A DNA stretch of 64,000 nt from Clostridiaceae bacterium (lineage in GTDB: Bacteria; Bacillota; Clostridia; Christensenellales; CAG-917): the NCBI GenBank assembly GCA_031289315.1, contig JAITPR010000016.1, positions 72,751 to 136,750 of the forward strand. The letters run 5' to 3'. Position numbers and translations under genes: made by a program. Shown piece after piece: positions 1 through 62,837 of this stretch; position 1 is the stretch's first letter; every line of letters begins with the position of its first letter. Below the pieces are notes generated by a model. It saw only the letters and a program-made list of their open reading frames with translations, was not told where the DNA came from and did not search any database.

Positions 1-1102
1 ATTTGCCGTCGCGCTTATATATCTTGTAATGGCGGCGCAGTTCCAAGGCTTTAAAGCGCCTCTCATAATAATGAGTACCATACCGTTGGCGTTTACGGGC
101 AGCTTCTTATTGCTTGCCGCGGCGAGAATGCCGATAAGCATAATGGCTATGATGGGGCTTATCATACTCATGGGCGTTGTCGTCAACAACGGTATCGTTT
201 TCGTCGATTACGCAAATAGGTTGATTGAAAGCGGCGTCGATAAGCGCACCGCGCTGTTCCGTACCGGCGTAGACCGCATGCGTCCCATATTCATGACGGC
301 GGCGACGACTATTCTTGCCATGGTCATCATGGCGGCGGACGGCTCCGATTACGGGCAAATGTTACAGCCCTTAGCAATTACCAGCATAGGCGGTCTTGCC
401 TACGCCACGGTAGTTACGCTGTTCATAATTCCTATCATCTACGACTTACTTAACCGCAAGGGCATTAACAGTGAGAAAAAACGCGTTCTGCGCGAACAAT
501 TGCTGGCTGAAGTCGACCCCGACAACATATTCGACTCCCTCGACCCCGCAATGGCGACCTTCATAGGCGAAACCGTCACCGGCAAACAGTATAGAATAAT
601 CAATATAAAACGCGGTAAAGGTAAAGAAGACACCGACTTCGCCTTAGAAATCGCGGAAACCGGTGAAATCTTCGAATTAGCCGATACGGAAATCGCCGCC
701 GACGTAGCTGATGCCGAAACCGATATACCCGTGGATGCGGAAGTATCCGCGAACGCCGAGGTAGTTGAGGATACCGCCGCCGTTGTAAAAGCCGACGACG
801 CCTTTGCAGCAACTGAAACAAATATACCGGTAAACATCTCCGCCGCCGTGACGACTGAAACCGACAAGCCTACCGCAGCTTCCGCAACAGCGGACGCCGA
901 TAAGCCCGCCGATGTCGCTGTGCCGGCGCAACCGCTGTGTGTCGGTATGCAGTTGCCCATACCCGACGGTGTGCCTGAGGGTTGGAGGTTCTTTAACGTC
1001 AAAGCCGGGCGCGGCAAGTATATATGTGAGCGTTGCGGTACCGTGAACGCCACCTCAAAGCCCGTTTGCTCCCACTGCGGCACGCTGCGTGAGAAGAAGT
1101 AA
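1..1102 (+). CDS. RND (AcrB/HAE1-like) efflux transporter, C-terminal part; the 5' end lies outside the window. It carries a ~210-aa acidic low-complexity tail ending in a Cys4 zinc ribbon.
   Basis: The frame is open from position 2. The motif LVMAAQF..F..PLIIM..IPLA and the terminal TM helices are typical of RND pumps. The tail ends in CERCG...CSHCG. Confidence 0.8.
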   Translation, partial: FAVALIYLVMAAQFQGFKAPLIIMSTIPLAFTGSFLLLAAARMPISIMAMMGLIILMGVVVNNGIVFVDYANRLIESGVDKRTALFRTGVDRMRPIFMTAATTILAMVIMAADGSDYGQMLQPLAITSIGGLAYATVVTLFIIPIIYDLLNRKGINSEKKRVLREQLLAEVDPDNIFDSLDPAMATFIGETVTGKQYRIINIKRGKGKEDTDFALEIAETGEIFELADTEIAADVADAETDIPVDAEVSANAEVVEDTAAVVKADDAFAATETNIPVNISAAVTTETDKPTAASATADADKPADVAVPAQPLCVGMQLPIPDGVPEGWRFFNVKAGRGKYICERCGTVNATSKPVCSHCGTLREKK

Positions 1103-1104: not shown

Positions 1105-1420
1105 TTAGAGTTCTTTTTGCTATGCGGAAATGTCCTTGTTCTTTTTGACATACGTCAAAAAGAACCAAAAAACGTGCAAGCGTGACGCTTGACCCTGATC
1201 ACTTGAAAAACGTGGTTGATGCAAGTTCCTTGCTCATCAACCGCGTTTTTAAATTTATTAGTATTCAATCACCGCCGTTGCGTCTTTTTAGTCACTTCTG
1301 CGTTGCACGGGACGATTTAGATTGTCGTCCGGCAATCGCCGTGGTAAGATTATAGCGCTCAACCGTCGCTCTTTCGTCTTTGTCGCTTCTGCGTTGCACG
1401 GAACGAGATATAAGTTAACA
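1105..1420. repeat. Mosaic multi-hairpin intergenic repeat, copy A (modules H1 GTTCTTTTTG..CAAAAAGAAC, H3 CAAGCGtgaCGCTTG, H2 terminator hairpin, plus two ~90-bp subrepeats)
   Basis: About 93% identical to 1961-2236. The same modules recur at 22714, 24407 and 52385, with H2 alone at 28219. Confidence 0.85.
1206..1250 (+). terminator. Intrinsic (bidirectional-type) terminator hairpin, module H2 of the mosaic repeat
   Basis: AAAAACGTGGTTGATGCA..TGCTCATCAACCGCGTTTTT, with an A-run before and a T-run after. It lies downstream of the RND gene. Confidence 0.7.
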
Positions 1421-1442
1421 AAATTTCCGTGGAGGATACTTT

Positions 1443-1904
1443 ATGGACGGATATATAAAATACATAAGAAAAGCAGTGGGACACCGCCGCATAATCCTTA
1501 ACTTCGCCGGAGGCGTCATTGTCGACGAAAAAGGTGGGATTTTGCTCCAAAGACGCTCCGACAGAAATAAATGGGGTTTTCTAGGCGGCGCGATTGAGCT
1601 TGGCGAGTCCGCGGCGGAAGCGGCAATCCGCGAAATAAAGGAAGAGTCAGGTTTGGTCGTAAAGGTCGATTGCCTCATTGGTATCTATACCAAATATTTT
1701 GACAAGTACCCGAACGGCGACGAAGCCCAAACCGTTACGCATGCCTTTATGTGTTCGGTAACGGGCGGCACGCTTGCCGCTAAGGACTCCGAAACATTGG
1801 AACTTAAATTTTTTTCTCCGTCCGCTCCCCCCGACCTTGTAAATGTACAACACATGGATTTGTGGGACGACGTGTGTAACGGTCGTAAAAACGTGTTCAG
1901 ATAA
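1443..1904 (+). CDS. NUDIX hydrolase
   Basis: Nudix box GGAIELGESAAEAAIREIKEESGL. GGAGG Shine-Dalgarno (SD) at 1430-1434. Confidence 0.85.
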   Translation: MDGYIKYIRKAVGHRRIILNFAGGVIVDEKGGILLQRRSDRNKWGFLGGAIELGESAAEAAIREIKEESGLVVKVDCLIGIYTKYFDKYPNGDEAQTVTHAFMCSVTGGTLAAKDSETLELKFFSPSAPPDLVNVQHMDLWDDVCNGRKNVFR

Positions 1905-1936
1905 TGCGCGCGCTTAAGGCGTCCGACACACCCAAG

Positions 1937-2255
1937 AAACCGAAAAGCCGCAAGCTTGAGCCTTGGTTCTTTTTGACACACGTCAAAAAGAACCAAAAAA
2001 CATGCAAGCGTGACGCTTGACCCTGATCACTTGAAAAACGTGGTTGATGCAAGTTCCTTGCTCATCAACCACGTTTTTAAATTTATTAGTATTCAATCAC
2101 CGCCGTTGCGTCTTTTAGTCGCTTCTGCATTGCACGGAACGATTTAGATTGTCGTCCGTCAATCGCCGTGTAAGATTATAGCGCTCAACCGTCGCTCTTG
2201 CGTCTTTGTCGCTTCTGCGCTGCACGGAACGATTTAGATTGTTGTTTATCAAGCT
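1937..2255. repeat. Mosaic multi-hairpin intergenic repeat, copy B (direct repeat of copy A; includes terminator hairpin 2034-2078)
   Basis: Aligns with 1134-1408 module by module. Together with copy A it brackets the NUDIX gene. Confidence 0.85.
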
Positions 2256-2520
2256 CTGTGCATTGTGAATAAATCTGCGTTACACGCGTAAAAGCGCAAA
2301 AAAATATATAATTTGACATACGGAGAGAGCCGAAAAAATCGCGGCGCATTGTGAATAAAGGCGCACGCTACCCGCGTAAAAAAGAAGCGAAAATAACGTA
2401 AAAATCGACTTTTTTTGACGTTTATTTTTACTTCGCGCTTTTATTTGTTTTCCCTTAAAAAAACACGTTTTCGTTCACTTAAAAAGTATGGAAATCACTA
2501 AAAAATAGGGTCGGCATACC

Positions 2521-3051: not shown

Positions 3052-3267
3052 TTATTTTCTACTGCTTTGTGTTGCAAGCGCATATAAACCTGTTTTGACG
3101 GTTTACGGCGCGGGCGGTAGTTGTTATTTTCTACTGCTTTGTGTTGCAAGTGCATATAAACCTGTCTTGACGGTTTAGAGGCGTCCGTTCGGTTGTTATC
3201 TTTTTTCTACGGCTTTGTCGTGTTCGGCGCGGTTGTGGAGTATGTTGTGCCAGTTTCTGACCATATA
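3052..3267 (-). repeat. 72-bp tandem repeat x3: the 3' end of the DUF378 gene (including its stop) and two downstream copies
   Basis: TTAT(T/C)TTT..CTAC.GCTTTGT.GTGTT units start at 3052, 3124 and 3196. The 3196 unit is the real gene end. Confidence 0.8.
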
Positions 3268-12911: not shown

Positions 12912-13364
12912 ATGAAAATCCACGATTTACAACCCGCTCCCGGCGCGGTTACCGCTCCCAAAAGATTGGGTCGCGGCATAGGTTCCGGACTAGGTAAAAC
13001 GAGCGGCAAAGGTCATAAAGGTCAATGGGCTAGAAGCGGCGGCGGCGTGCGTCCCGGGTTTGAAGGCGGTCAAATGCCTATCACTAGACGTATTCCTAAG
13101 CGCGGCTTTAACAACAAATTCCGCAAGGAATATTCAATTATAAACTTGGGCGCGCTTGAAGTATTCGAAGACGGCGCCGTCATTACGACGGAAACTCTTG
13201 TTGAGACGGGCATCGTCAGGAAAGTAGAGGCTTACGGCGTCAAGGTTCTTGCCGGAGGCGCACTTACCAAAAAGCTCACCGTTAAAGCGGCTAAATTCAG
13301 CGACGCCGCAGTCGAGGCAATTGTTGCCGCCGGCGGCACCGCGGAAACTGTTGAATACAAATAA
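12912..13364 (+). CDS. rplO: 50S ribosomal protein L15 (uL15)
   Basis: [20 protein letters not shown]. Confidence 0.96.
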
Positions 13365-13463
13365 GCACTTTTGCCTTGAAGCCTCCCGTGCCGAATAAGG
13401 GCGCGTACCGGAGGCGGTAAGCCCCGTCAACATCGGGGCAAGCGTTAAGCTTGGAGTATAAAA

Positions 13464-20479: not shown

Positions 20480-20558
20480 CTATTTGTCTAACAGCCAGTC
20501 AAGTACGTTTACCTTGCGTATACCGCCGAAGTCTGTTTCGGGGGTTTCGTCAAGAGTA
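20480..20558 (-). pseudogene. Relic 3' end (last ~25 codons plus stop) of a paralogue of the DUF4143 ATPase gene
   Basis: About 88% identical to 22875-22955. The rest of the CDS is missing and the fragment is joined directly to a copy of the ATPase upstream region. Confidence 0.8.
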
Positions 20559-20562
20559 AATA

Positions 20563-20591
20563 AGTATATATCAGAAGCAAGGACAAGTCAA
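20563..20591 (-). promoter_or_regulatory. Orphan promoter TTGACT-17-TATACT retained in the ATPase relic locus
   Basis: The reverse complement reads TTGACT tgtccttgcttctgata TATACT. Same hexamers and spacing as the promoter at 24180-24208. Confidence 0.55.
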
Positions 20592-20599
20592 ATAAGAAC

Positions 20600-20698
20600 G
20601 GGAACATAATCCACAAATCCTATGAAATAAAGAAGTTTATGGAACGTAATCCACAAACTTTTGAAAACGCTTGAGTTTGTGGAATGCAACCCATAAGG
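20600..20698 (-). repeat. Three iteron-like ~20-bp direct repeats at a 40-bp period (relic copy)
   Basis: GGGAACATAATCCACAAAT at 20600, TGGAACGTAATCCACAAACT at 20640, TGGAATGCAACCCATAAG at 20680. Confidence 0.75.
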
Positions 20699-21214: not shown

Positions 21215-22594
21215 ATGGATATCGATTTTACAGTCGAAAACGGAGAAATAACAATAACGACTGATGGATTAACCGGAACCTTGGCAGAGGTTAACACTGC
21301 AATAGCGAATATTAACTCCAAACAGACGGATTTACTGTGTGTGTCCGCAGATTTCGATTTTGAAGCCATAGGCGGAGAAATAACGATAACTGCTTACAAG
21401 GGCTCCGCAAGCGTCGTGACAATTCCGGCTGAAATAGCAGGTATACCCGTGTGCTATGTAGGAGAATCCATATTTGATAATTCTAACAATATAAGACAGA
21501 TCAACTTACCCAACGAAACTTGTGCCAAAGATTTTGACATAGAGAAATTTTTTTTAAACCTTGATTTTCAGGGGATAAACATATTAAATAGAAAATATGC
21601 ATATAGAGAGAGTGACATGCTGTTATCTGACTATGGCGAAACGCTTCTCTATTATAAAAACAGTGGTACAACTCTTACAATCCCCGTGGGTATTAAGACG
21701 ATAACGACAGAAACATTTTCAGATCAGAGCATTGTTGAAACTGTGCGCATACCCGCTAGTTTGGAATATATAGATGAAGAGCAGCTATCTTACTTCTCTA
21801 TAGAGTCAGAGCCGCTACAATTTTTTTCAGAGGGCGATAAATTAATTAAAATAGAAGTGGACGCTGCCAACACCAAATATAAAGATATAGACGGAGTGTT
21901 GTTTAGTAAAGACGGCAAAGTACTTATAAAATATCCTTGCTGCAAAATAGGAACCCATTATAATATCCCCGATGAAGTGGAGATTATATGCCCCTGTGCA
22001 TTTTTTGGGTGCCGTTTTTTAAATAGCATATATTTCGCTAATGTACAATTAATAAAAAGAAATTATCGCTATTATGACAGAATTAATCAAGACGACTCCT
22101 ACTTTAATAGAGAAATATTTTTTGAACTATGTTTTTCAGATTGTGAGGCATTAACAACCATAACAGTAAATTTCACAAATGCTGAGTATAAGGATATTGA
22201 CGGAGTACTATGCACGGCTACAGGAGAACTTCTCAAATATCCTGAAGCTAGAGTATGCGTAAATTATGTTATACCGGACGGTGTGAAGTATGTAAACTCG
22301 GGGGCTTTCAGGAATGCTAGGTTATTGAACGGCGTGATGATATCTCAGAATGTTACATATCGAAGAGCTCTTTTATATTTTTTGCAAAAAGATAATAAAA
22401 AAGCATTTTATTGTGGTACGACAACGCAATGGAACACTTACAAATCGGAAAACTGGAAGCAGGGTACTGAGAATGAGTTCGGCCATGACGGCAATGTAAT
22501 CAGTGAGAGATTATTATTCTGTTTCTCCGACACTCAACCGACTGAAGAGGGCAAATATTGGCATTATGTGAACGGCGTGCCGACGGAGTGGTAA
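21215..22594 (+). CDS. Leucine-rich-repeat protein, BspA-like (LRR_5 type); no signal peptide seen
   Basis: Repeated I/V-P..V..I...AF..C..L..I units (e.g. YNIPDEVEIICPCAFFGCRFLNSIYF). AGGAGG SD. Low GC. Confidence 0.8.
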   Translation: MDIDFTVENGEITITTDGLTGTLAEVNTAIANINSKQTDLLCVSADFDFEAIGGEITITAYKGSASVVTIPAEIAGIPVCYVGESIFDNSNNIRQINLPNETCAKDFDIEKFFLNLDFQGINILNRKYAYRESDMLLSDYGETLLYYKNSGTTLTIPVGIKTITTETFSDQSIVETVRIPASLEYIDEEQLSYFSIESEPLQFFSEGDKLIKIEVDAANTKYKDIDGVLFSKDGKVLIKYPCCKIGTHYNIPDEVEIICPCAFFGCRFLNSIYFANVQLIKRNYRYYDRINQDDSYFNREIFFELCFSDCEALTTITVNFTNAEYKDIDGVLCTATGELLKYPEARVCVNYVIPDGVKYVNSGAFRNARLLNGVMISQNVTYRRALLYFLQKDNKKAFYCGTTTQWNTYKSENWKQGTENEFGHDGNVISERLLFCFSDTQPTEEGKYWHYVNGVPTEW

Positions 22595-22713
22595 ATCTCG
22601 CGGTCTGCTTATGCTGACAATGCCGTGGTAGTTCGCGGTGAAGCATGATAATCTTGAACCGCGTCCGCTTGAAAGAAACAAATAGGTTCAAAGACACGAA
22701 AGGGTTACATTGT

Positions 22714-22874
22714 CACTAATAGAATTAAAAAACGCGGTTGATGGGCAAGGAACTTGCGTCAACCGCGTTTTTAAAGTAATCAGTGTCAAGCTTCAAGCTT
22801 GCGCGTTTTTGGGATTCTTTCTTGCCGGCAAGAAAGAACGGAAACTCACACTTGTGGTTTGTGCGGCGTGACGC
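22714..22874. repeat. Mosaic multi-hairpin repeat, copy C (inverted relative to A/B; includes terminator hairpin 22727-22775)
   Basis: Modules H2, H3 (CAAGCTTcAAGCTTG) and H1 (ATTCTTTCTTGccggCAAGAAAGAAC). The first ~95 bp are nearly identical to 24407-24502. Confidence 0.85.
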
Positions 22875-24074
22875 TTATTTATCTAACAGCCAATCAAGTA
22901 CGTTTAGCTTGCGTATGCCGCCGAAGTTTGTTTCGGGGGTATCGTCGAGGGTAAGGAGCAGTTTAGGGTAGTGGTCTGTTATTGCTTTGAGGGAAGCGAG
23001 TTCACGTTCAAGCGTGGCTTGGTTGCGGACTGTCGCCGCCACTTGAAAATAGGCTGTACCTTGTGAGGTAACGGCGACGAAATCGACTTCTTTTGAATCG
23101 ACCTTACCTACGTAAACGTCATAGCCCCTACGGAGGAGTTCTAAGTAAACGATATTTTCGAGGATACGCCCCTCATCGTAGTTTTGCCGTCCTAACAGCG
23201 TAAAACGAAGCCCTATATCGGTGGCGTAATATTTTTCCAGAGTTTTTAAATATTGTTTGCCTTTTATATCGTAGCGTTTTGCTTGATAGATAATAAAGCT
23301 GTTTGTAAAGGCGGAAAGGTATTTTTCAACGGTTTTTACGTCGATTTTTCTTCCGTTTGAAGTCATGGTATCCGCGATACTTTTAGTGGAAAGTAGGTTT
23401 GCAATGTTATCATATAGAAAGCGGAGGACGCTTTCAAGTTGCATTAAATCGTTGAATTTATTGTGTTGCATTATATCTTTCAAAACAACGGTAGAATAAA
23501 TCCCACGCAAATAGTCGTCCGTATTTTTTTTGTCGCCGGCAAGTTCCGTGACGTAAGGAAAAGAACTTCTTTCGATATATTCGCGGTATTTGCTGGAAAC
23601 GGACTTATTATCTTTGGTTGCAGTCGAATATTCGGCAAATGAGAGCGGGAGCATTTCTATTGTGATGTAGCGTCCGGAAAGGAGGGTGGCAAGCTCGCCG
23701 GACAAGAAAAAGGCATTTGAACCGGTGATATAAATGTCCAGTTCTTTTCGCAAAAACAGGCTATCCACTACTTGTTCAAAGTCCGCAACATTCTGAATTT
23801 CATCGAAAAACACGTAGCTTTTTTTGCCGGGTTGAATCAGCGAAATAACATATTCGTGCAATACGTGCTTGTCGCGGAGGTGAGTGTTAGACATGTTCTC
23901 GAAGTCTACGGCGATTATTTGCGCCGAATCTACGCCGCAACTTTCCGTGAGATATTCTTTAAAAAGTTCTAAGAGGGAGGATTTGCCGCAACGGCGTATC
24001 CCCGTAATTACTTTTATGACATGCTTATCCTTCCACGCGATAAGCCGATCTAAATATTCTTTACGTTGAATCAT
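22875..24074 (-). CDS. AAA+ ATPase with a C-terminal DUF4143 (PD-(D/E)XK-like) domain, COG1373 type
   Basis: Walker A GIRRCGKSSLL. MIQRKEYL start at 24074 with GGAGG SD; the longer ORF-track start at 24131 runs into the repeat and was rejected. Confidence 0.85.
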   Translation of the reverse strand: MIQRKEYLDRLIAWKDKHVIKVITGIRRCGKSSLLELFKEYLTESCGVDSAQIIAVDFENMSNTHLRDKHVLHEYVISLIQPGKKSYVFFDEIQNVADFEQVVDSLFLRKELDIYITGSNAFFLSGELATLLSGRYITIEMLPLSFAEYSTATKDNKSVSSKYREYIERSSFPYVTELAGDKKNTDDYLRGIYSTVVLKDIMQHNKFNDLMQLESVLRFLYDNIANLLSTKSIADTMTSNGRKIDVKTVEKYLSAFTNSFIIYQAKRYDIKGKQYLKTLEKYYATDIGLRFTLLGRQNYDEGRILENIVYLELLRRGYDVYVGKVDSKEVDFVAVTSQGTAYFQVAATVRNQATLERELASLKAITDHYPKLLLTLDDTPETNFGGIRKLNVLDWLLDK

Positions 24075-24094
24075 AAAAGTACCTCCGTGATTAC

Positions 24095-24165
24095 GGATGT
24101 GGACAATCCGCTGTGACGATTTGCTAGGCAAGAAAATATTTTGTCACTGCGAACTGTTTCCACCC
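24095..24165. repeat. GTGGACA-palindrome repeat, full copy in the 5' UTR of the ATPase gene
   Basis: GTGGACAATCCGCTGTGACGA..AAGAAAATATTTTGTCACTGCGAACTGTTTCCACCC. The arms pair. Its end lies 20 nt from the ATG. Confidence 0.9.
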
Positions 24166-24179
24166 ATGATTACCGTTTG

Positions 24180-24208
24180 AGTATACATCGGAAATAAGTA
24201 TAAGTCAA
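24180..24208 (-). promoter_or_regulatory. ATPase promoter TTGACT-17-TATACT
   Basis: The reverse complement reads TTGACT tatacttatttccgatg TATACT. It lies between the iterons and the palindrome repeat. Confidence 0.6.
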
Positions 24209-24216
24209 ATAAAAAT

Positions 24217-24316
24217 GGGAACGCAATCCAAAAACTCTGTAAAATAAGATAGTTTTTGGAACGCAATCCAAAAACTTTCGAAATCAACGAAGTTTTGGGA
24301 ATGTAATCCAAAAACT
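24217..24316 (-). repeat. Three iteron-like 20-bp direct repeats at an exact 40-bp period, two with internal 10-bp inverted repeats
   Basis: GGGAACGCAATCCAAAAACT at 24217, TGGAACGCAATCCAAAAACT at 24257, GGGAATGTAATCCAAAAACT at 24297. AGTTTTTGGA-n6-TCCAAAAACT at 24251-24276. Confidence 0.85.
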
Positions 24317-24406
24317 TTTAAAATGATTTTAAGAAAGTTTTTTCGTTTCGGACAAGAAAAAGGGAAGTATAGGAGTAACTAAAAAGTCACCGGGTTGATG
24401 TTTGGT

Positions 24407-24622
24407 ACTAATCAATTAAAAAACGCGGTTGATGGGCAAGGAACTTGCGGCAACCGCGTTTTTAAAGTAATCAGTGTCAAGCTTCAAGCTTGCGTGTTTT
24501 TGGTTCTTTTGCCGCATAGCAAAAGAACAAGGGCGTTCTTTTGCCGCGTAGCGAAAGAACAGAGGCTCAAGCTTTAAGCTTGCAGTTTTTCAGTTCCTTT
24601 TGGGCGTCAGAAGGAACGAGAG
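24407..24622. repeat. Mosaic multi-hairpin repeat, copy D (H2 terminator 24417-24465, H3, three H1-type hairpins)
   Basis: Direct repeat of copy C across the ATPase locus. H1 hairpins at 24497-24524, 24529-24557 and 24589-24616. Confidence 0.85.
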
Positions 24623-24623: not shown

Positions 24624-25826
24624 TTACTTCAAGCCGTAGAAATTTTTCAGGGCTTTGGCGGCGCTATTAAGAGATGAGGCTTTGACGCAGAGAGAGATTT
24701 TCGTTTCGCTGGTGGTGATGGCGTGGACGGTTACGGAGGCGGTGCTTAGGATATTGAGCACTTCCATAGCCACACCGCTACGGTGGGGCATTCCGGCGCC
24801 TTCAATGGTTAGTTTGGCGGCGTTCTTGACGGTGGAATAATCAATGTTAAGCGACTTAACCGCCGTTTCGGCGTGCTTGCAATCGGAGCTGTGGAGGGTG
24901 AAACTGGTGTTTATGCCGGTTGTCGCAGGAGTTTGACTTATCATGTCGAGTATGACGCCGCGTTCGGCAAGCTTGAGGAGGAGCGACGAGAAGCGTTCCG
25001 GAGTTATGGCGTAGGCGGTGAACAGGCATTGTTCGGCTTCGGCGGAGATATTTGTAACGGAGTAGAAGCGGGCGAGTATGGAATTCATATCGTAAAGCCC
25101 GCTTTTTTTATCGGCAAGAAAGGACGCCGCACGGAGCGCGCCGTATACGAACACGTCTTTTGAGTTCGCCTCATGGGAGAGTGTGACGGTTTCGCCTTGC
25201 CCGATAAACATTATATCGTGCTTGCCGATTATACTTCCGCCGCGCACCGCGTGGATGCCTAACTCGCGTTTTTCGCGTCGATGGTCGGGGTCGTGTCTGC
25301 CGTAGACGGGTTCAAGGCGGTTCAGAAGCGCTTCATTGACGGCTTTGGCGATGGAAACCGCCGTGCCGCTGGGCGCGTCCAATTTGCGGTTGTGGTGTTG
25401 CTCGATGATTTCCACGTCATAGTCTTCGCCTAAGAACTTCGCCGCGTCTTTGGCAAGACCGGTTATCAGGTTCACGCCTAAGGACATGTTGCTAGACTTG
25501 AACACCGCTATGGTTTTGGCGGCGTCGCGCAGCTCGACGTCTTGAGCGGGAGAAAGCCCGGTCGTTGCGATGACGGCGTTTATGCGATTTTTGACGGCGT
25601 AGTCGATTATGCCGTCGAACGCGGCGTGGTTGGAAAAATCAATTATCACGTCGGCGGGAGCGGTTATGTCGGAGATATTCTTAAATACGGGAACATCAAA
25701 ATCCCGTTCGGTGTTTTCGGCGTATAGATCCACGCCGGCTACGATGTTGAAGTTGTCGCTTTTGTAGGTGGCGGCATATACCGCGCGTCCTAAGCGACCG
25801 CCTATACCGGTAATTATAATGTTCAT
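24624..25826 (-). CDS. dapB: 4-hydroxy-tetrahydrodipicolinate reductase fused to a C-terminal tandem ACT (aspartokinase beta-subunit-like) domain
   Basis: DapB motifs GIGGRLGR and EQHHNRKLDAPSGTA. About 148 extra residues carry GAGM..RSGVAMEVL..L......V.AITTSETKISL. Confidence 0.85.
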   Translation of the reverse strand: MNIIITGIGGRLGRAVYAATYKSDNFNIVAGVDLYAENTERDFDVPVFKNISDITAPADVIIDFSNHAAFDGIIDYAVKNRINAVIATTGLSPAQDVELRDAAKTIAVFKSSNMSLGVNLITGLAKDAAKFLGEDYDVEIIEQHHNRKLDAPSGTAVSIAKAVNEALLNRLEPVYGRHDPDHRREKRELGIHAVRGGSIIGKHDIMFIGQGETVTLSHEANSKDVFVYGALRAASFLADKKSGLYDMNSILARFYSVTNISAEAEQCLFTAYAITPERFSSLLLKLAERGVILDMISQTPATTGINTSFTLHSSDCKHAETAVKSLNIDYSTVKNAAKLTIEGAGMPHRSGVAMEVLNILSTASVTVHAITTSETKISLCVKASSLNSAAKALKNFYGLK

Positions 25827-28110: not shown

Positions 28111-28218
28111 GCGCGTTTGCGTAAGAGGAGATTTAATTTAAGGTCAGATAAAGGTTTGAGTAAGTGCGCAGTGAAAATAAAAAAAACCGCTCTTGCAATT
28201 ACTTTCGCGCCTTAAAAT

Positions 28219-28263
28219 AAAAACGCAGTTGACGCAAGCAAATTGCTTTTGTCAACCGCGTTT
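28219..28263 (-). terminator. Terminator hairpin (H2-type module of the mosaic family) after the small zinc-ribbon gene
   Basis: ACGCAGTTGAC...GTCAACCGCGT stem flanked by an A-run and T-run. Confidence 0.6.
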
Positions 28264-28358
28264 AAAGTTAAAGATCTGTTTTATCGCTGTTAGGGTGTTT
28301 GGTTTTTATTGATTTATTATGTTCTTACCTATCGGTTTGGTTATACGACGCAATGAAA

Positions 28359-28607
28359 TCATGCCGACCATATACTACCGCAGTTAATACAAACATACAA
28401 CCTGGAATGGTCGCCACTAACTCCCAATAAGATCTTACCCAAAATACCGGTGAACATAAAAAATTCGCAAGATACAACACTGTGACCGCAGTATGAGCAA
28501 GATCCTCCACTCGACATATACTTCAGAAATTTATTTATTTCTGAAGATTTTAATTTTGTGTTTACGTCTAGTATTGCCTCAATTCTTCCTCTATCTGTAT
28601 AAGCCAT
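28359..28607 (-). CDS. Hypothetical 82-aa protein with CxxC...CxxC (zinc-ribbon-like) and a hydrophobic segment
   Basis: GAGGAG SD 5 nt upstream of the ATG; CSYCG...CINCG; low-GC context. The overlapping alternative frame 28325-28510 lacks an SD. Confidence 0.55.
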   Translation of the reverse strand: MAYTDRGRIEAILDVNTKLKSSEINKFLKYMSSGGSCSYCGHSVVSCEFFMFTGILGKILLGVSGDHSRLYVCINCGSIWSA

Positions 28608-28698
28608 GGGTACTCCTCATTGGTTTTATTATTTTCGTTATATTATTACTATGGTAAGAAGTCAAGTATTTTCTTACATTTGTGAGAAACTTTTTATC

Positions 28699-28908
28699 AT
28701 GAGTAACAAGTTCGGCGAAAATCTGAAAGAATTGCGTCTGGAGAGAAATTTGGGGCAAGTCGAATTGGCAAAAGCCATATCCGTTAGCAAAGGCATAATT
28801 AGTCTTTGGGAAAACAATCAACGTGAACCCACGCTGTCGTCTTTGTTGGCTTTAGCCGAATATTTTAACGTTAGTATTGACTTTCTTGTCGGACGTAATA
28901 ATTATTAA
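28699..28908 (+). CDS. XRE-family helix-turn-helix transcriptional regulator (69 aa)
   Basis: LKELRLERNLGQVELAKAISVSKGIISLWENNQREPTLSSLLALAEYFNVSIDFL is a canonical HTH_3. Start taken at the internal ATG at 28699. Confidence 0.75.
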   Translation: MSNKFGENLKELRLERNLGQVELAKAISVSKGIISLWENNQREPTLSSLLALAEYFNVSIDFLVGRNNY

Positions 28909-29249: not shown

Positions 29250-29285
29250 TGTGAAAGTCCGCCGCTACGGTTTAATTTGATATTC

Positions 29286-29356
29286 GGGTGTGTACAATCC
29301 TCTGTGACGACTTACTGGCTAAGAAAATATTTTGTCACCGCGAACTGTCCCCACCC
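29286..29356. repeat. GTGGACA-palindrome repeat, full copy
   Basis: GTGTGTACAATCCTCTGTGACGACTTACTGGCTAAGAAAATATTTTGTCACCGCGAACTGTCCCCACCC. Confidence 0.9.
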
Positions 29357-29394
29357 ATTCCCCCCGAGAAAAGCAAGTGTACAAGGATGTTGTT

Positions 29395-36360: not shown

Positions 36361-36379
36361 ATTGTTCTCCTTTATTTAT

Positions 36380-36446
36380 GGTGTGTATAATCCGATGTGA
36401 CGACTTGCATGCTAAGAAAATATTTTGTCACCGGAATTGCCCATCC
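36380..36446. repeat. GTGGACA-palindrome repeat, full copy in the rplI 5' UTR
   Basis: GGTGTGTATAATCCGATGTGACGACTTGCATGCTAAGAAAATATTTTGTCACCGGAATTGCCCATCC. Ends 19 nt from the ATG. Confidence 0.9.
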
Positions 36447-36499
36447 ATTTAATTAATACCGCCCGCCAACCATGTTGCGGCGCACGGATATTCCATATA

Positions 36500-36528
36500 A
36501 ATATACCACGCATGTGCCTTTTTCGCAA
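36500..36528 (-). promoter_or_regulatory. rplI promoter TTGCGA-17-TATATT
   Basis: The reverse complement reads TTGCGA aaaaggcacatgcgtgg TATATT. It lies upstream of the palindrome repeat. Confidence 0.6.
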
Positions 36529-37450
36529 GACATTTTTTGATAGGGCAGATACATATTTATGTATGCGGATTGCACAGAGATGTATCGTAAAAGTTTTCGC
36601 ACTTATTTGGGGACCTTTCGACACGACGGTGTTACGGCTATCACCGTAACACTGTCGGCTCAAGGTGACAGTCTAGAGAACAAAGCTCGGGATTGTCGAG
36701 TTCGTCGGTCATTACCGTCTGCATCTCAAGGTGACAGTCTAGAAAACAACGATCCCATTTCGGGAAGGTGTTATACTGCCGAGCATATTGTCATATTGAG
36801 CCGAAAACCTTTTTGTCTAGAGCAATATAACCCGCATTGAATGGCGGAAATATGTCCGGGAAATGTTTAGCGAAGGAGTTAAGCGGGGGAAATTTTACAG
36901 GTATATCGCACCTTAGTCGGAGGGCGGAGGCGCATTGTGCGTTGCGAAAAATGCCGTGCGGGAGGGGATCGGCGCAATTTAAAATGCGTTTGCGGGCGTA
37001 ATGTACGGAAGTACGGGCATTACAAGTTTCAACATCAAAGTAAAAAATATATTTTGTCCCTCAATTTTGCTCTTAAGAACGCGTTTCGAATAGCAAAATA
37101 TGCTCTTAAAAAATTTTTTTTTATCAAAGATGTCAAATGAGGCACTTTGTAATTAAATTTTTAGGGTGAAAGTAAAATTTTTTTTATGCAAATGTGTATA
37201 AAAACGGTTTTTTATGCGTAAAATTCATAAAAAGCGGGTTTTAATTCATATTCAGACCGCGTATAAAACCCTAATTAAGGTTGAAAAAAGCGATTTTAAA
37301 ACCCAAATTTTTATCATAATCCGCAGTTGATAATAGCAAAATATACTGATAAACATTGAATTTAGTTGAAAATAGGACTTGTCGTATTAACGTCTAACCA
37401 TGTTTATTTTGTATACAAGATCGTTTATTTACTTAAAATCCTCTGCGGGG

Positions 37451-37479
37451 TTGCATTTGGCGCAATTATGTGGTAAAAT
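37451..37479 (+). promoter_or_regulatory. Promoter TTGCAT-17-TAAAAT
   Basis: TTGCAT 37451-37456, TAAAAT 37474-37479. Confidence 0.6.
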
Positions 37480-37486
37480 CTAACGG

Positions 37487-37815
37487 AAGCTAAAGTTTTA
37501 AAAAGACTTGGTGTGACGGGAGTCGCGGGGCTTGCCCCCGGGTTGTCGGGCAGGGAATGAATGCGGAGTTTACGAAGCAGAAACCGCATGACTTTACTTG
37601 ACGGTATCCCCTCTCGTCTTTCGCTAAGAAAAACTTTTAAACTACTTGTACGCTAAAAGGCGTATGGGGGATGGTCGAGCTAAAGCGGAGGATTTCCGTG
37701 CAAGGCAAGCACGTACCGTGCGTCGTATCGTGGGCGGTTCCAAAAGATTGAACGTAGGATGAAACTGTTTTAGGTCAGTCGTAACGGTCGTTTAGAAATA
37801 CTTGAGAGGTGAGAT
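37487..37815 (+). promoter_or_regulatory. ~330-nt GC-rich leader upstream of the glucokinase gene (possible cis-regulatory RNA, class unknown)
   Basis: No ORF. Local hairpins include CGGGGcttgCCCCG at 37526 and ATGCGG..CCGCAT at 37561-37589. No intrinsic terminator seen. Confidence 0.3.
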
Positions 37816-41745: not shown

Positions 41746-42368
41746 TAATTTTGAAGTATCGAAAGACCGGAAGCGCACGCTATATTTCGCATATAGACGT
41801 CTTGCGCGGTATGGGGCGGATTTTGCGGCGCGCGGGGCTGGAACCCACCTTTTCGCAGGGCTTCAATCCTCATATGAACCTATATTTTTCGCCGCCCATA
41901 GCGCTGGGGCTGGGAAGCGTCGCGGAATACATGGCGGTCGACATACCGGAGGTTAGCCCGGAGGATTTTCTTAAGAAATATAACGCGGCGGCTCCCGACG
42001 GTTTAAAGGGTATTTCCGCAGAATATGCGGAAAAAAATCCGAATTTTGCGGCAAACGTCAAGGCGTTCGTCTACCGTACGGAGCTGAAAGGGAGTGCGGA
42101 AGCGCTTGCCAAAATTGAGAAAATCAAGGACGTTTATAATATAACGTACACACAAAAGGGCGAAACCGTAACAAAGGATGTGGGCGCGCTTATCCGTAAA
42201 ATAGAAAGAAGAGGCGATTCGGAATTCTTTTTTACGCTTGCCGCCGGTGCGGAGGTTTTACGTCCCGACAGACTACTCAAGCAGTTGGAGGTTGATTTCG
42301 GCATAGAATACAGCCTTCCCGAGGTTACAAAAACCGAACAACTTTTTGGGGTGGACAATCCGCGTTGA
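41742..42368 (+). CDS. Radical-SAM-associated DUF2344 (TIGR03936-like) protein
   Basis: ARYISHIDVLRGMGRILRRAGL..FSQGFNPH; 4-nt overlap with the upstream radical SAM gene. Confidence 0.8.
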   Translation: MIILKYRKTGSARYISHIDVLRGMGRILRRAGLEPTFSQGFNPHMNLYFSPPIALGLGSVAEYMAVDIPEVSPEDFLKKYNAAAPDGLKGISAEYAEKNPNFAANVKAFVYRTELKGSAEALAKIEKIKDVYNITYTQKGETVTKDVGALIRKIERRGDSEFFFTLAAGAEVLRPDRLLKQLEVDFGIEYSLPEVTKTEQLFGVDNPR

Positions 42369-42520
42369 CGACTTGCTGGCTAAGAAAATCTTTTCGGCTC
42401 TTTTTAGTCTAAAACCGTCTGAAATGCTCGTCCGGTAGCGGTGCTACGACTGTGCTTTTAGGTAATTTATCCTTACAAATAGCCGAAAAAATATTTTATC
42501 ACCGCAAATTGTCCACATCC
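42348..42520. repeat. GTGGACA-palindrome repeat, long form with a ~85-bp palindrome-ended insert in the loop
   Basis: Left arm 42348-42397 (overlaps the last codons of the CDS). The insert is bounded by CTTTTCGGCT/AGCCGAAAAA. Right arm 42483-42520. Confidence 0.85.
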
Positions 42521-48613: not shown

Positions 48614-48656
48614 GAGATGTTTTCTTGCGGTACGTTAGCGAACTGCAAAATTTCAT

Positions 48657-48725
48657 GGTGTGGACAGTTCGCGATGATAAAATATTTTCTTAACCGGCAA
48701 GTCATCAGCGCGGATTATTCACATC
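48657..48725. repeat. GTGGACA-palindrome repeat, full copy (opposite orientation on the + strand)
   Basis: GTGGACAGTTCGCGATGAT(48660-48678) pairs with ATCAGCGCGGATTATTCAC(48704-48722). Ends 23 nt before the ATG at 48749. Confidence 0.9.
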
Positions 48726-50040: not shown

Positions 50041-50110
50041 GGGTATGGACAATTCGCGGCGACAAAAAAATTTATTGCCTGGCAAGTCGTCACATCGGAT
50101 TGCCCGCACC
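50041..50110. repeat. GTGGACA-palindrome repeat, full copy
   Basis: GGGTATGGACAATTCGCGGCGACAAAAAAATTTATTGCCTGGCAAGTCGTCACATCGGATTGCCCGCACC. Ends 23 nt before the ATG at 50134. Confidence 0.9.
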
Positions 50111-50133
50111 AAAATTTAACAAGGAGTTTTTTT

Positions 50134-50700: not shown

Positions 50701-52383
50701 ATGCCGCTATACGAATTATATACGGGCAAAAATCGCGACGATTTTGCCACACTAGAAGATTTACAAAAAAATTACAAACTCACGGTTCCGGACGATTTCA
50801 ACTTTGCGTTCGATTGCCTTGACCGTTTAGCCGCCGAAAAGCCGGATGCGCTTGCGTTGCTTTGGATTTCCAACGACAACGAGGAAAAGCGGTTCACCTA
50901 CGGCGATATACGCAAGCTTAGCCTAAAAGCCGCCAATTTCTTCAAAAAACACGGCATCGGCAAAGGTGATATGGTTATGCTTACCATGAGCCGCGACTGG
51001 CGGTTTTGGCCGGTACTCATGGGGCTTCACCGCATGGGCGCGACGGCGGTTCCCGCTTCCTACTTGCTCACCGCGAAGGATATAGTATACCGCATGAACG
51101 CCGCGTCTATAAAAATGCTTCTCACAACTCCGCGTTTCGGCGTTACTCAAGCCATGGAGGAGGCGCTTTCACAGTGTCCTACCGTTAAAAAGCTAGCCGT
51201 GTTTGGCGGCAAGCTGCCCGCGTCAAATCTGTGGATAGATTTCGATAAGGAGTTGGAAGCCGCGCCGGAAACGCCGTTTAAACGTTGCACAATCAAGTCT
51301 GATACCATGCTTATGGCATTTTCGTCCGGCACAAGCGGATACCCCAAAATGGTTCAGCACGACTACACGTATCCGTTGGGACACATTCCGACCGGCTGTT
51401 TTTGGCAACGTTGTATCGACGGCGGTCTGCACCTCACCATATCCGACACCGGTTGGCTTAAAAGTCTTTGGGGCAAGATGTACAGCCAATGGCTTGCCGG
51501 CAGCGCGGTTTTTTGCTACGACTTCGACAAGTTCTCCGCGTCCGACATCCTTGAAAAAATCGAAAAATATAAGGTGACTACCTTCTGCGCCCCCCCGACG
51601 ATGTACCGCTATATGATTAAAGAGAACCTCAAAAAATATGATTTCTCTTCACTCAAGCACTGCTGCGCCGCCGGCGAAGCCCTTAACCCCGAAATCTATA
51701 AGGTGTGGTTTGCCGGTACCGGGCTTAAAATATTTGAGGGCTTCGGACAAACCGAAACCACCCTGTCCTGTTGGACCGGCTATCCGTGGATGCAACCGCG
51801 CTTAGGCTCTATGGGGCTTCCCGCCCCCGGCTACCGCATGATAGTCTGCGACGAAACCGGCGTCGAACTGGGCGCCGGCGTCACCGGAGAAATTTGTATC
51901 CGTACCGACGACGCGGGCGGCGGTAAGCCCTACGGGCTGTTCAAGGGCTACTACCGCGACGCGGAGATGACCTCCCAAATTTGGCACGACGGCATATATC
52001 ATACCGGCGATACCGCCTATAAGGACGAGATGGGCTTCCTCTGGTACGTGGGGCGTATGGACGACGTGATTAAATCCTCCGGCTACCGCATAGGTCCATT
52101 TGAGGTCGAGTCCGCACTCATGGAACACCCCGCCGTCACCGAATGTGCCGTTACCGGGCTGCCGGACCCCGAACGCGGTTTCGTCGTCAAAGCCACCGTG
52201 GTTCTCTCCACCGGTTATACGCCCTCCGACGCGCTCACTAAAGAGCTGCAAAACCATGTCAAAAAGGTGACCGCTCCCTATAAATACCCCCGAGTAATCG
52301 AGTATGTCGACGCGCTTCCCAAAACCGTTAACGGCAAAATCCGCCGCGTAGAAATCCGTAACCGCGACATCGAAAAGAAATAG
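50701..52383 (+). CDS. AMP-forming acyl-CoA synthetase (medium-chain/AcsM-like)
   Basis: AMP-binding motif FSSGTSGYPK, plus YHTGD and SSGYRIGPFEVE. Confidence 0.9.
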   Translation: MPLYELYTGKNRDDFATLEDLQKNYKLTVPDDFNFAFDCLDRLAAEKPDALALLWISNDNEEKRFTYGDIRKLSLKAANFFKKHGIGKGDMVMLTMSRDWRFWPVLMGLHRMGATAVPASYLLTAKDIVYRMNAASIKMLLTTPRFGVTQAMEEALSQCPTVKKLAVFGGKLPASNLWIDFDKELEAAPETPFKRCTIKSDTMLMAFSSGTSGYPKMVQHDYTYPLGHIPTGCFWQRCIDGGLHLTISDTGWLKSLWGKMYSQWLAGSAVFCYDFDKFSASDILEKIEKYKVTTFCAPPTMYRYMIKENLKKYDFSSLKHCCAAGEALNPEIYKVWFAGTGLKIFEGFGQTETTLSCWTGYPWMQPRLGSMGLPAPGYRMIVCDETGVELGAGVTGEICIRTDDAGGGKPYGLFKGYYRDAEMTSQIWHDGIYHTGDTAYKDEMGFLWYVGRMDDVIKSSGYRIGPFEVESALMEHPAVTECAVTGLPDPERGFVVKATVVLSTGYTPSDALTKELQNHVKKVTAPYKYPRVIEYVDALPKTVNGKIRRVEIRNRDIEKK

Positions 52384-52384: not shown

Positions 52385-52560
52385 GGAATAAGGCATAGTT
52401 CTTTTTGCCCGCGCAAAAAGAACCCAAAGTTGGTGCGCCTTGCGAGGTTCGCAAGGCGCACTGCGCAAGCTTGAAGTTTGACCCTGATTACTTGAAAAAC
52501 GCGGTTGACGCAGGATTATATCCTTAGCGTCAACCGCGTTTTTAAATTCATTAGTGTTAA
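52385..52560. repeat. Mosaic multi-hairpin repeat, copy F (H1, an extra 13-bp hairpin, H3, H2 terminator 52494-52544)
   Basis: GTTCTTTTTGcccgcgCAAAAAGAAC; GTGCGCCTTGCGAggtTCGCAAGGCGCAC; CAAGCTTgAAGTTTG; AAAAACGCGGTTGACGC..GCGTCAACCGCGTTTTT. Confidence 0.85.
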
Positions 52561-55143: not shown

Positions 55144-55212
55144 GGGCGTGGACAATACGAGATGACGACTTGCGAGGCAAGAAAATATTTTACATAGCGA
55201 ACTGTCCGCACC
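55144..55212. repeat. GTGGACA-palindrome repeat, full copy between tyrA and aroB
   Basis: GGGCGTGGACAATACGAGATGACGACTTGCGAGGCAAGAAAATATTTTACATAGCGAACTGTCCGCACC. Ends 22 nt before the ATG at 55235. Confidence 0.9.
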
Positions 55213-55234
55213 AATCTTAGATAGATGGAGATTT

Positions 55235-61715: not shown

Positions 61716-61790
61716 AAAACGCTAAAAAAACGCTAAAAAAACGGCAAAAAAAACGGCAAAAAACCATAAAAAACGCCTTTAAATACCGCA
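61713..61790 (+). repeat. Phased A-tract array (A6-8 every 10-12 bp) starting at the aroE/aroK stop codon
   Basis: TAAAAAACGC TAAAAAAACGC TAAAAAAACGGC AAAAAAAACGGC AAAAAACCAT AAAAAACGCC. Confidence 0.85.
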
Positions 61791-62767: not shown

Positions 62768-62833
62768 GGGCGTGGACAATTTTATCCTTAGAAATAGCTT
62801 GAAAATATTTATCACCGCGAATTGTCCCTACCC
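62768..62833. repeat. GTGGACA-palindrome repeat, internally deleted derivative of the long form
   Basis: GTGGACAAT is joined directly to TTTATCCTTAGAAATAGCTTGAAAATATTTATCACCGCGAATTGTCCCTACCC, which aligns with 42467-42520. Confidence 0.8.
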
Positions 62834-62837
62834 ACGG

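Follow-up and report, generated by a model that had tools for sequence, protein, structure and literature searches.

A lineage-specific family of modular, probably terminator-carrying repeats between genes of an uncultured member of the Clostridia

Analysis of a 64,000-nt stretch of DNA (hereafter, the window) from the MAG of an uncultured member of the Clostridia, named "Clostridiaceae bacterium" at NCBI, makes it probable that this organism carries dispersed intergenic repeats of modular build that bear a terminator and form a family specific to its lineage. The family is real and lineage-specific, and it adds a fresh instance to a type of bacterial repeat that is already well known. Judged from their sequence and position, its members most likely supply the transcription terminators of the genes that lie upstream of them. 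For the purposes of annotation, the family points to the 3′ ends of genes, and to likely boundaries of transcription units, in a little-known lineage of Clostridia, and it accounts for the fragmentation of short-read assemblies of this organism at these points. It also combines, outside Streptococcus, a terminator-shaped dispersed repeat (as in SPRITE) with modules of variable number (as in BOX). The sense-oriented placement close to stop codons is unusually strict, which would make the family well suited to asking if repeats of this kind have been recruited as terminators or are merely tolerated. On present evidence, the family opens no new mechanism.

Copies of the repeat and their detection

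Self-BLAST of the window aligned copy A (1134–1406) and copy B (1961–2232) as direct repeats that are 95.6% identical over 274 columns, with 98% identity in the opening 151 nt. The original prediction was right about this pair, although its figures of about 93% identity and about 290 bp were not reproduced. A core of about 120–210 nt, consisting of one to three H1 modules, one or two H3 modules and one H2 module, recurred at 22712–22841 (copy C), 24405–24617 (copy D) and 52398–52560 (copy E). A profile built from the cores recovered these five full copies in the window with E values from 6e-42 to 2.5e-35 (A, 6e-42; B, 7e-41; C, 1.4e-39; D, 2e-37; E, 2.5e-35), and it matched a site with H2 alone at 28218–28263 (E = 2e-6). 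The further members that had been predicted at 22714, 24407 and 52385, and the lone H2 at 28219, were thus all recovered. The motif GTTCTTTTTG was found 8 times against 0.42 expected from shuffles, and the corresponding values were 6 against 0.01 for the H1 pattern, 7 against 0.05 for the H3 pattern and 11 against 0.24 for the H2 arm. The unpaired spacers ACCCTGATYACTTG and AAATTnATTAGT are conserved among the copies as well, which indicates that the copies are homologous and do not merely resemble each other in shape. Copies C and D, which are 92.9% identical across 113 nt of the core and share no extended identity, are no closer to each other than to other members.

A sixth copy (F) lies 2 kb beyond the end of the window, after the stop codon of an H+-PPase gene (13243–13301 of the Logan contig L010). 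The seventh is located on a different contig of 70,438 bp, where it is known solely as a translated "protein", P0178. It was found in a census that made use of spurious ORFs, in which the translated repeat was searched against 1.8 billion and 5.8 billion proteins. Only three repeat "proteins" were retrieved; two of them correspond to copies B and D, and the third is P0178. With six full copies in about 66 kb and one on another contig, the repeat is a dispersed intergenic one, and the possibility that the copies are confined to this region is contradicted by P0178. In P0178, an H3 of the A/B type is joined to a 3′ tail of the E type, and this mosaic suggests that copies swap segments. The Logan contigs L001 and L010 (run SRR14710897) end inside copies B, E and F, as would be expected from a multi-copy repeat; L001, which was checked, is 100% identical to the window.

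No Rfam family matched at the gathering score anywhere in the window, and a search of 1050–2550 at E ≤ 1 returned only chance matches to miRNA hairpins (E > 0.1). The two-armed H2 pattern found four unrelated single hairpins among GTDB species representatives and four among JGI metagenomes, none of them like those in the window, which suggests that the lineage is either absent from these collections or diverged there. In viral contigs, the H3–H2 junction pattern had zero matches and the H3–H1 pattern had one chance match. BLAST of copy A against plasmid and phage sequences gave no match.

Module structure, folding and covariation

Each copy comprises, in order, one to three H1, one or two H3 and a single extended palindrome of about 85 nt centred on H2. 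H1 is an AT-rich hairpin of 25–28 nt that is perfect or near-perfect, and H3 is a 15-nt hairpin, CAAGCKTNAMGCTTG. H2 has a stem of 15–20 bp with the base CGCGG/CCGCG, preceded by a run of A5–6 and followed by a run of U5–6; its folding energy is −22 to −32 kcal/mol, and it has U5–6 tails in both directions. The stem, the A-tract before it and the U-tract after it bear out the form of a bidirectional terminator-like hairpin that had been proposed for H2. The surrounding region of about 85 nt is an imperfect palindrome with self-inverted matches at 74–78% identity. Relative to shuffles, the folding of entire copies gave z values of −6.8 to −9.1.

The core of copy A (1110..1264, plus strand) begins 7 nt after the stop of an RND-pump gene (29..1102) and contains a decayed H1 (1110–1135), H1 (1138–1165), H3 (1177–1191), H2 (1206–1250) and the conserved 3′ box AAATTTATTAGT (1251–1262, plus strand). 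Its tail (1265..1406, plus strand) consists of about 1.6 units of a tandem subrepeat of about 90 bp. The gene for a NUDIX hydrolase of 153 aa (1443..1904, plus strand) separates A from B. The core of copy B (1915..2092, plus strand) starts about 10 nt past the stop codon of NUDIX; it contains the remnant of an H1 3′ half with spacer (about 1915–1950), a decayed H3 (1951–1965), H1 (1966–1993), H3 (2005–2019), H2 (2034–2078) and the 3′ box (to 2090), and is followed by a tail with about 1.8 units of the subrepeat (2093..2260, plus strand). Both copies therefore begin earlier than originally placed, with decayed modules right after the stop codons (1110–1135 in A, about 1915–1965 in B).

Copies C and D lie on the minus strand. 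Copy C (22712..22841) is situated between convergent genes, 35 nt from the stop (22875) of an AAA_14/DUF4143 ATPase gene, and is composed of H1 (22839–22814), H3 (22801–22787) and H2 (22772–22728). Copy D (24405..24617), 6 nt from the stop of dapB-ACT (24624), has the largest set of modules: H1c (24617–24593), H3b (24582–24568), H1b (24560–24535), H1a (24528–24503), H3a (24492–24478) and H2 (24463–24419). On the plus strand, copy E (52398..52560) follows the stop of an AMP-ligase gene (50701..52383) by 14 nt. It contains H1 (52398–52423), H3 with a G·U pair (52466–52480) and H2 (52495–52543), together with an extra perfect GC-rich hairpin at about 52431–52460 (−21.7 kcal/mol). The solitary H2-like hairpin (28219..28266, strand unassigned; −22 to −24 kcal/mol) follows a small ORF on the minus strand (about 28606..28360) at a distance of about 95 nt; it may belong to the family in diverged form, or else be an ordinary terminator in the same style.

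In the covariation analysis, 97.8% of the stem cells were paired, and three stem pairs were altered on both sides yet still paired. One of these is the change from U-A to G-C in H3, which confirms the earlier observation of a paired change that keeps the palindrome. The other two are in H2: a C-G pair that is U·G in A and U-A in B, and a U-A pair that became C-G. The observed covariation score of 0.111 was reached by 16 of 500 shuffles, and slid controls gave 0–0.037. In copy E, the apical stem of H2 is swapped for a different stem with pairing retained. The stem mismatches comprise three G·U on the sense strand and two C·A (in H1b and H1c of copy D) that would be G·U on the other strand; since they favour neither strand, the structure could matter as DNA as much as RNA. 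The H1 arms were compared by folding each instance singly; length variants spoiled a MAFFT alignment of the H1 instances. The presence of H1 one to three times per copy was confirmed, but its stem, which had been described as conserved, shows length variants and compensated changes. The overall description as a mosaic, BOX/BIME-like intergenic repeat carrying a terminator fits the data, with a module number that varies and a mosaic copy in P0178.

Two other interpretations of the repeated hairpins were rejected. A CRISPR array is incompatible with spacers of only 6–7 nt between H1 copies, and the ORFs across the copies are short and frame-inconsistent and mirror the palindrome on both strands, which argues against coding sequence.

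Placement downstream of genes and relation to known repeats

All full copies begin 4–35 nt past a stop codon; the gap between the stop codon and the first module is 7, about 10, 35, 6, 14 and 4 nt in A to F, respectively. The upstream genes are unrelated, encoding an RND pump, the NUDIX hydrolase, the AAA ATPase, DapB, the AMP-ligase and the H+-PPase. In all five informative cases, namely the copies between same-direction genes, the order is stop codon, H1, H3, H2; the probability of such co-orientation with the upstream gene by chance is 1 in 32. Both this figure and the stop-codon distances come from a small sample of 6–7 copies. The copies do occur on both chromosome strands, as had been predicted, but with respect to the gene ending immediately upstream their orientation is constant.

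H2 has the form of an intrinsic terminator in all copies, with a G+C-rich stem-loop directly followed by a U-tract and a position 3′ of genes. By this form, H2 would act as the terminator of the upstream gene and would also stop transcription coming from the opposite side. H3 and the T6 after it may form a second terminator-like site when the reverse strand is read. This combination was flagged by the terminator scan, in which the loop limit was 8 nt, hence H2 was not flagged. REP elements are known to shield transcripts against 3′ exonucleases, and by analogy the H1 and H3 stem-loops in the 3′ UTR could do the same; alternatively, they may be variable passenger modules, like boxB. The family would have spread by copying, for which transposition in trans and recombination or gene conversion among copies are the candidates, and copies would have persisted where the terminator was useful or harmless. 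For pneumococcal repeats, the 3′ bias was argued to come from purifying selection against promoter insertions (PMC3049150). The 3′ bias of the present copies could, by analogy, reflect such selection rather than function.

On the best reading, the family comes closest to SPRITE and BOX of pneumococci and to REP/BIME of enterobacteria. SPRITE, which is also dispersed, is shaped like a Rho-independent terminator and enriched near the 3′ ends of coding sequences (PMC3049150). The likeness is one of architecture only, drawn from descriptions, and extends to a length of about 100 nt, a long stem with a U-rich tract after it, the 3′-end enrichment and the proposed co-option as a terminator (PMC3049150). 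However, SPRITE occurs in another class of Firmicutes and has a single 18-bp duplex, whereas the present family has variable H1 and H3 modules in addition, and A- and U-tracts on both sides. The architecture of BOX from S. pneumoniae and S. suis (boxA-boxB(n)-boxC), compared by description in the same way, is likewise composite and intergenic, with a variable number of internal modules (PMC3049150) and a module that folds independently. In BOX, boxA and boxC pair with each other, and there is neither a terminator nor a strict position after stop codons; in contrast, the present family carries self-contained variable hairpins on its 5′ side and the terminator at its 3′ end. REP/BIME elements of enterobacteria and pseudomonads are also short extragenic palindromes, single or in mosaics, that are often found in 3′ UTRs or between convergent genes, and they affect mRNA stability and recombination. 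Their hosts belong to a different phylum, however, and REPs are G+C-rich imperfect palindromes with a 5′ tetranucleotide of the GTAG type, arranged in alternating clusters and linked to RAYT, whereas H1 is AT-rich and perfect and starts with GTTC. No RAYT (Y1 transposase) gene is present among the ORFs of the window.

The NUDIX pair and alternative explanations

The tails of A and B set this pair apart. The subrepeat motif GTCGCTTCTGCGTTGCACGGAACGA occurs four times, in A and B only, in accordance with the original prediction of two subrepeats of about 90 bp in these copies. The units each end in GTCrCTTCTGCGTTGCACGGrACGA and are common to A and B alone; the tail is absent from C, D, E and P0178, and so is not part of the dispersed family. 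The tail of B continues past the point where that of A is cut, at the NUDIX-proximal junction (1406/1407). At the other end, A opens with a decayed H1 that resembles H1b of copy D, B opens with what is left of an H1 and with a decayed H3, resembling the 5′ end of copy D, and high identity between A and B begins only at the last H1. Because their stop-proximal modules differ, A and B were not copied as whole units. We propose that A and B are adjacent members of the family, A following the pump gene and B the NUDIX gene, and that their final 274 bp (H1-H3-H2 and the private tail) were recently homogenised by local duplication or gene conversion. The NUDIX gene would then be bracketed because consecutive same-direction genes each carry a 3′ element. 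Deletion by homologous recombination is possible between any direct repeats, and these 274-bp repeats, 828 bp apart, can delete the NUDIX gene by this ordinary route. A side observation concerns its expression: no σ70-type promoter was predicted between H2 of copy A and the NUDIX start, and transcription of the gene is accordingly hard to account for if H2 terminates efficiently.

The dispersed homologous copies with conserved unpaired spacers, their density of about one per 10 kb in the window, the BOX-like modular variation and the extended palindrome of the H2 region would also fit a selfish non-autonomous mobile element, MITE-like or a REP mobilised by RAYT, with a terminator shape that is incidental and copies that survive at 3′ ends because they are least harmful there. 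Moreover, a second, unrelated family of inverted-repeat elements of about 72 nt is present in the same genome, which suggests that repeats proliferate readily here. The likeness to the Correia element of Neisseria and other MITEs includes a dispersed intergenic repeat of 100–160 nt with a long hairpin and a possible effect on transcription. However, MITEs bear terminal inverted repeats and target-site duplications (TA for Correia). The whole element here runs from GTTCTTT in H1 at its 5′ end to ATTAGT at its 3′ end, with a palindrome only in the internal H2 region, and inspection of the flanks of A, C, D, E and F by eye, with no statistics, revealed no shared direct repeat. Neither a transposase that could point to a parent IS nor a Y1 gene was found in the window, and mere tolerance downstream of a gene does not need the co-orientation seen in five of five cases. 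We consider this explanation rather unlikely. That the modules are arrayed binding sites (operators or nucleoid-protein sites) or small RNAs derived from 3′ UTRs, with termination secondary, is in our judgement extremely improbable. H3 does contain tandem AAGCTT palindromes, H1 is conserved beyond the needs of pairing, and BIMEs are bound by IHF, gyrase and Pol I (PMC3184786); but the flanking genes have no common function, there is free variation in the number of modules and in their spacing, no Rfam family matches and no candidate binding protein is evident.

The repeats might instead be portable sites of homology or recombination, with the NUDIX and ATPase genes as mobile single-gene cassettes that each travel with one repeat copy, which is the cassette-like gain or loss of the original prediction. 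The repeat-unique-repeat layout at NUDIX (274, 554 and 274 bp) is what an 828-bp circle integrating into a resident copy would leave, and the left junction between A and NUDIX splits a subrepeat unit mid-way. The ATPase gene, whose start codon is uncertain, is likewise bracketed (by C and D), has a low GC content (42.7%) and has a gutted paralogue at 20481–20696; the mosaic P0178 shows exchange of segments between copies. Against this, the genes ahead of four of the six copies (RND pump, dapB, AMP-ligase and H+-PPase) belong to core metabolism or housekeeping and do not seem cassette-like, and the base composition of NUDIX is native, with a GC content of 48.7% (window mean, 49.3%) and a GC3 of 53% (window mean, 57%). 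Among the scanned ORFs, which covered essentially all those of at least 100 aa in the window, there was no integrase, recombinase or transposase. C and D lack extended identity, the deletion junction of the ATPase relic involves no family copy, and the differing stop-proximal modules of A and B fit two resident elements that were later made alike. The comparison with integron attC/VCR sites leads in the same direction: these too are imperfect palindromes of about 120 nt directly 3′ of single small genes, and their direct copies bracket, for example, NUDIX hydrolases, but the GTTRRRY/RYYYAAC end boxes are missing here (GTTCTTT has pyrimidines where purines are required), as are an integrase gene and an array, and 20–28 kb of housekeeping genes separate copies over a span of more than 60 kb. 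The cassette claim thus found no support, and we regard it as quite improbable. Still more doubtful is shuffling independent of an integrase, in which a gene with one terminator-bearing repeat would loop out between copies and re-enter at any other copy, so that small genes (NUDIX, the AAA_14/DUF4143 ATPase) would be "terminator-delimited cassettes"; the mosaic P0178, the repeat-unique-repeat arrangement around NUDIX and a junction that falls within a subrepeat unit are compatible with this scheme and do not demonstrate it.

The NUDIX locus was also compared with other genomes. For the NUDIX protein, the sole exact database entry comes from the source MAG, and the next homologue is 62% identical; the nearest homologue of L3 is 76% identical. 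In a relative with 75% L3 identity, the cupin-DUF378-S10 order is kept with typA upstream, and both NUDIX and the family copies are absent; this relative is too distant for a call on gain versus loss of NUDIX. In other Clostridia, NUDIX homologues with 57–59% identity follow rplM-rpsI, which is a different context.

A dispersed family of modular hairpin repeats

A search with a profile of the core sequences, which carry the hairpin modules H1, H3 and H2, recovered five full copies in the window with E values from 6e-42 to 2.5e-35. These are A (1134-1406), B (1961-2232), C (22712-22841, minus strand), D (24405-24617, minus strand) and E (52398-52560, plus strand); the same profile detected an H2-only hairpin at 28219-28266 (E = 2e-6). 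All modules were found far more often than expected from shuffled sequences: 6 versus 0.01 for the H1 pattern, 7 versus 0.05 for the H3 pattern and 11 versus 0.24 for the H2 arm. The order of the modules is the same in all copies and consists of one to three H1 hairpins (GTTCTTTTTG..CAAAAAGAAC and variants), the spacer CCAAAAAACRYG, H3 (CAAGCKTGAMGCTTG), ACMCTGATYACTTKA, the long hairpin H2 (AAAAACGYGGTTGA ... TCAACCRCGTTTTT) and then WAATTnATTAGT. Copy D has an additional H1-H3 block and reads H1c-H3b-H1b-H1a-H3a-H2, and in copy E a further hairpin, perfect and GC-rich, lies between H1 and H3. The conservation covers the unpaired spacers as well as the stems, which indicates that the copies share ancestry and not merely shape. 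A lone H3-like palindrome with one position unpaired, CAAGCGTTAAGCTTG, lies between rplO and secY (13439-13453) and could be a stray module or a chance occurrence.

Confinement of the copies to this region would have counted against the original prediction; the family extends outside the window. Two Logan-assembly contigs of run SRR14710897 start or stop inside repeat copies. One of them, 100% identical to the window, starts at 2087, inside B; the other starts inside H2 of E (~52528 by coordinate offset) and ends 2.2 kb past the window inside a sixth copy, F, where the H+-PPase stop codon is followed by 4 nt, GTTCTTTCTTGCACGCGCAAGAAAGAAC, a spacer and CAAGCTTGAAGCTTG. We also translated the repeat and searched it against two protein collections, where it matched three spurious "hypothetical proteins", corresponding to copy B, copy D and a seventh copy, P0178, on a different contig of 70,438 bp. 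P0178 is a mosaic, with an H3 of the A/B type ("ASVTL" = GCAAGCGTGACGCTTG) and a 3′ flank that resembles E. Therefore, the G-C form of H3 marks a subfamily and is not a private change, and parts have been exchanged among copies.

No match to the family was found in Rfam, in plasmid and phage collections or among IMG/VR viral contigs, and the H2 pattern had no match in GTDB representatives or JGI metagenomes. The family is real and apparently has no earlier description. Judged from its sequence, it is a dispersed modular repeat with a putative terminator at gene 3′ ends, a kind of element that is already known. By description, not by comparison of sequences, its closest described analogues would be pneumococcal repeats. 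SPRITE is dispersed, has the form of a Rho-independent terminator and is enriched near the 3′ ends of coding sequences, and its co-option as a terminator has been proposed; BOX contains internal boxB modules that vary in number and fold independently (PMC3049150). The family has general biology in common with REP/BIME and Correia/MITE elements (PMC3184786), but when tested it showed neither the REP traits (G+C-rich sequence, GTAG-type start and, among the window's ORFs, a RAYT partner) nor the MITE traits (terminal inverted repeats and, by eye in the flanks of A, C, D, E and F, target-site duplications).

Folding of the modules and position relative to genes

Whole copies fold with z scores of -6.8 to -9.1 relative to shuffles, and the module folding energies are -8 to -16 kcal/mol for H1, -2 to -5.5 for H3 and -22 to -32 for H2. 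H2 has the stem base CGCGG/CCGCG, is preceded by A5-6 and followed by U5-6, and therefore has the form of an intrinsic terminator from both sides; H3 followed by T6 is terminator-like too, on the reverse strand. In the five-copy alignment, pairing is present in 97.8% of cells, and both-sided changes occur at three pairs. The paired change claimed for H3 was seen as U-A to G-C with pairing kept; H2 columns 39/73 are C-G in C, D and E, U.G in A and U-A in B, and columns 46/66 change from U-A to C-G. The covariation score of 0.111 was reached by 16 of 500 column shuffles, and controls in which the partner was slid by one to three columns scored 0-0.037. In copy E, the apical stem of H2 is swapped for another stem that is still paired. 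These five related sequences lend modest support to selection on pairing. Stem mismatches favour neither strand (three G.U on the sense strand; two C.A, equivalent to G.U on the antisense), so that the structure may matter as RNA or as DNA.

All full copies start shortly after a stop codon. The gap to the first module is 7 nt after the RND pump gene (A), ~10 nt after the NUDIX gene (B), 35 nt after the AAA_14/DUF4143 ATPase gene (C), 6 nt after dapB-ACT (D), 14 nt after the AMP-ligase gene (E) and 4 nt after the H+-PPase gene (F), and in each copy the transcript of the upstream gene meets H1, H3 and H2 in that sequence. Copy C was left out of the orientation count because the genes on its two sides are convergent, which makes its orientation uninformative; the other five (A, B, D, E and F) are all co-oriented with the upstream gene (chance 1 in 32). 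Four of the spacers between same-direction genes are long (340-700 nt), and in all of them the element lies next to the upstream gene, not next to the start of the downstream one. The proposal that copies occur in both orientations is thus correct for the chromosome strands but not relative to genes, where it masks a regular co-orientation.

Origin of the repeats around the NUDIX gene

As originally described, A and B are direct repeats around a NUDIX hydrolase gene (1443..1904, 153 aa). Their identity was measured as 95.6% over 274 columns and 98% over the first 151 nt. The high-identity block comprises the last H1, H3, H2 and a ~145-bp tail of ~90-bp tandem subrepeats, which within the window are found in A and B alone, not in C, D or E, and are likewise missing from P0178. 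Upstream of the block, the copies diverge: A starts with an H1 shortened by 5 nt in the 3′ arm and similar to H1b of D, and B starts with an H1 remnant and a decayed H3 that resemble the 5′ block of D. Because these upstream parts differ, A and B are two resident elements, each ending its own gene, whose 3′ portions would have been made alike by local duplication or gene conversion. The A tail is broken in mid-subrepeat at 1406/1407, at the start of the NUDIX leader, and the B tail continues, which fits some rearrangement in the subrepeat array. Promoter prediction gave no σ70-type site in 1250-1442, the interval from H2 of A to the NUDIX start, but one with perfect TTGACA-17-TATAAT for the cupin gene (2521-2549). 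NUDIX may be expressed by read-through of A or from a non-consensus promoter within the tail subrepeats.

It had been proposed that the bracketing repeats drive gain and loss of single genes as cassettes, which we consider improbable. The NUDIX gene has native composition (GC 48.7% and GC3 53%, versus window means of 49.3% and 57%), housekeeping genes precede most copies, the scanned ORFs of the window include no recombinase, integrase or transposase, the element ends do not match attC boxes, and the likeness of C and D stops at the core limits. Two points leave some room for the proposal: the ATPase gene and the adjacent LRR gene are low in GC (42.7% and 37.6%), and a gutted ATPase paralogue lies at 20481-20696, although the repeat family is not involved in the paralogue's deletion junction. 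Relatives for the proposed strain comparison are distant. The closest L3 homologue shares 76% identity; a relative with 75% L3 identity keeps cupin-DUF378-S10 with typA upstream and has neither NUDIX nor family copies, and NUDIX homologues elsewhere (57-59% identity) follow rplM-rpsI. We conclude that the NUDIX bracket is the local result of two neighbouring copies and a recent 274-bp homogenisation and does not count as evidence of a cassette system.

The paralogue is the relic of a second AAA_14/DUF4143 gene (compared with 22876-22954 and 24180-24313), in which the last ~26 codons (90% identical) are joined directly to a duplicate of the region upstream of the ATPase gene (75% identical), indicating that nearly the whole coding sequence was deleted. 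The ATPase upstream region contains three direct repeats of ~35 bp each (GGAACGCAATCCAAAAACTyT).

Genomic setting and other repeats

The window is ordinary chromosome of an uncultured member of the Clostridia and contains the S10-spc-alpha ribosomal protein cluster, asd-dapA-dapB, an aromatic amino acid operon, RNase E/G and other housekeeping genes. The 400-aa dapB product (24624-25826, minus strand) has C-terminal ACT domains fused on, and the RND (AcrB-family) permease (29-1102) has an acidic, Ala/Thr-rich extension of ~210 aa past the Pfam domain, ending in a zinc-ribbon-like CxxC...CxxC motif (CERCGTVNATSKPVCSHCG). The low-GC genes at 21215-24131 and 28606-28908, encoding the BspA-type LRR protein, the ATPase and an HTH_3 regulator (35.3%) in a genome of ~49% GC, may have been acquired horizontally.

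A second dispersed repeat, unrelated to the hairpin family, is ~72 nt long with inverted ends (GGTGTGGACAATCCG...TGACGACTTGC..AAGAAAATATTTT.TCACCGCGAATTGTCCACACC). At least six full copies (24094-24167, 29285-29358, 36380-36449, 48653-48725 and 50041-50114 on the minus strand, and 55144-55215) and three partial ones (42348-42394, 42466-42514 and 62801-62834) occur in the 64 kb. It folds weakly (z = -1.2 to -2.7), has no Rfam match and may be MITE-like or a promoter carrier. Its sites are short intergenic gaps and often overlap annotated start codons, suggesting miscalled TTG starts in some cases. Between rplI and a ROK-family gene, 1.45 kb (36361-37815) lack any ORF longer than 93 aa and gave no hit in Rfam at E <= 0.1; the direct repeat CTCAAGGTGACAGTCTAGArAACAA lies within this stretch at about 36661 and 36727. 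A 72-bp tandem repeat (2.1 copies, 87% matches) is located upstream of the DUF378 gene (3052-3199), and an intergenic 22-bp unit, AAAAAACCTAAAAAACGGCAT, is in tandem at 2944-2994 and recurs at 61713-61777.
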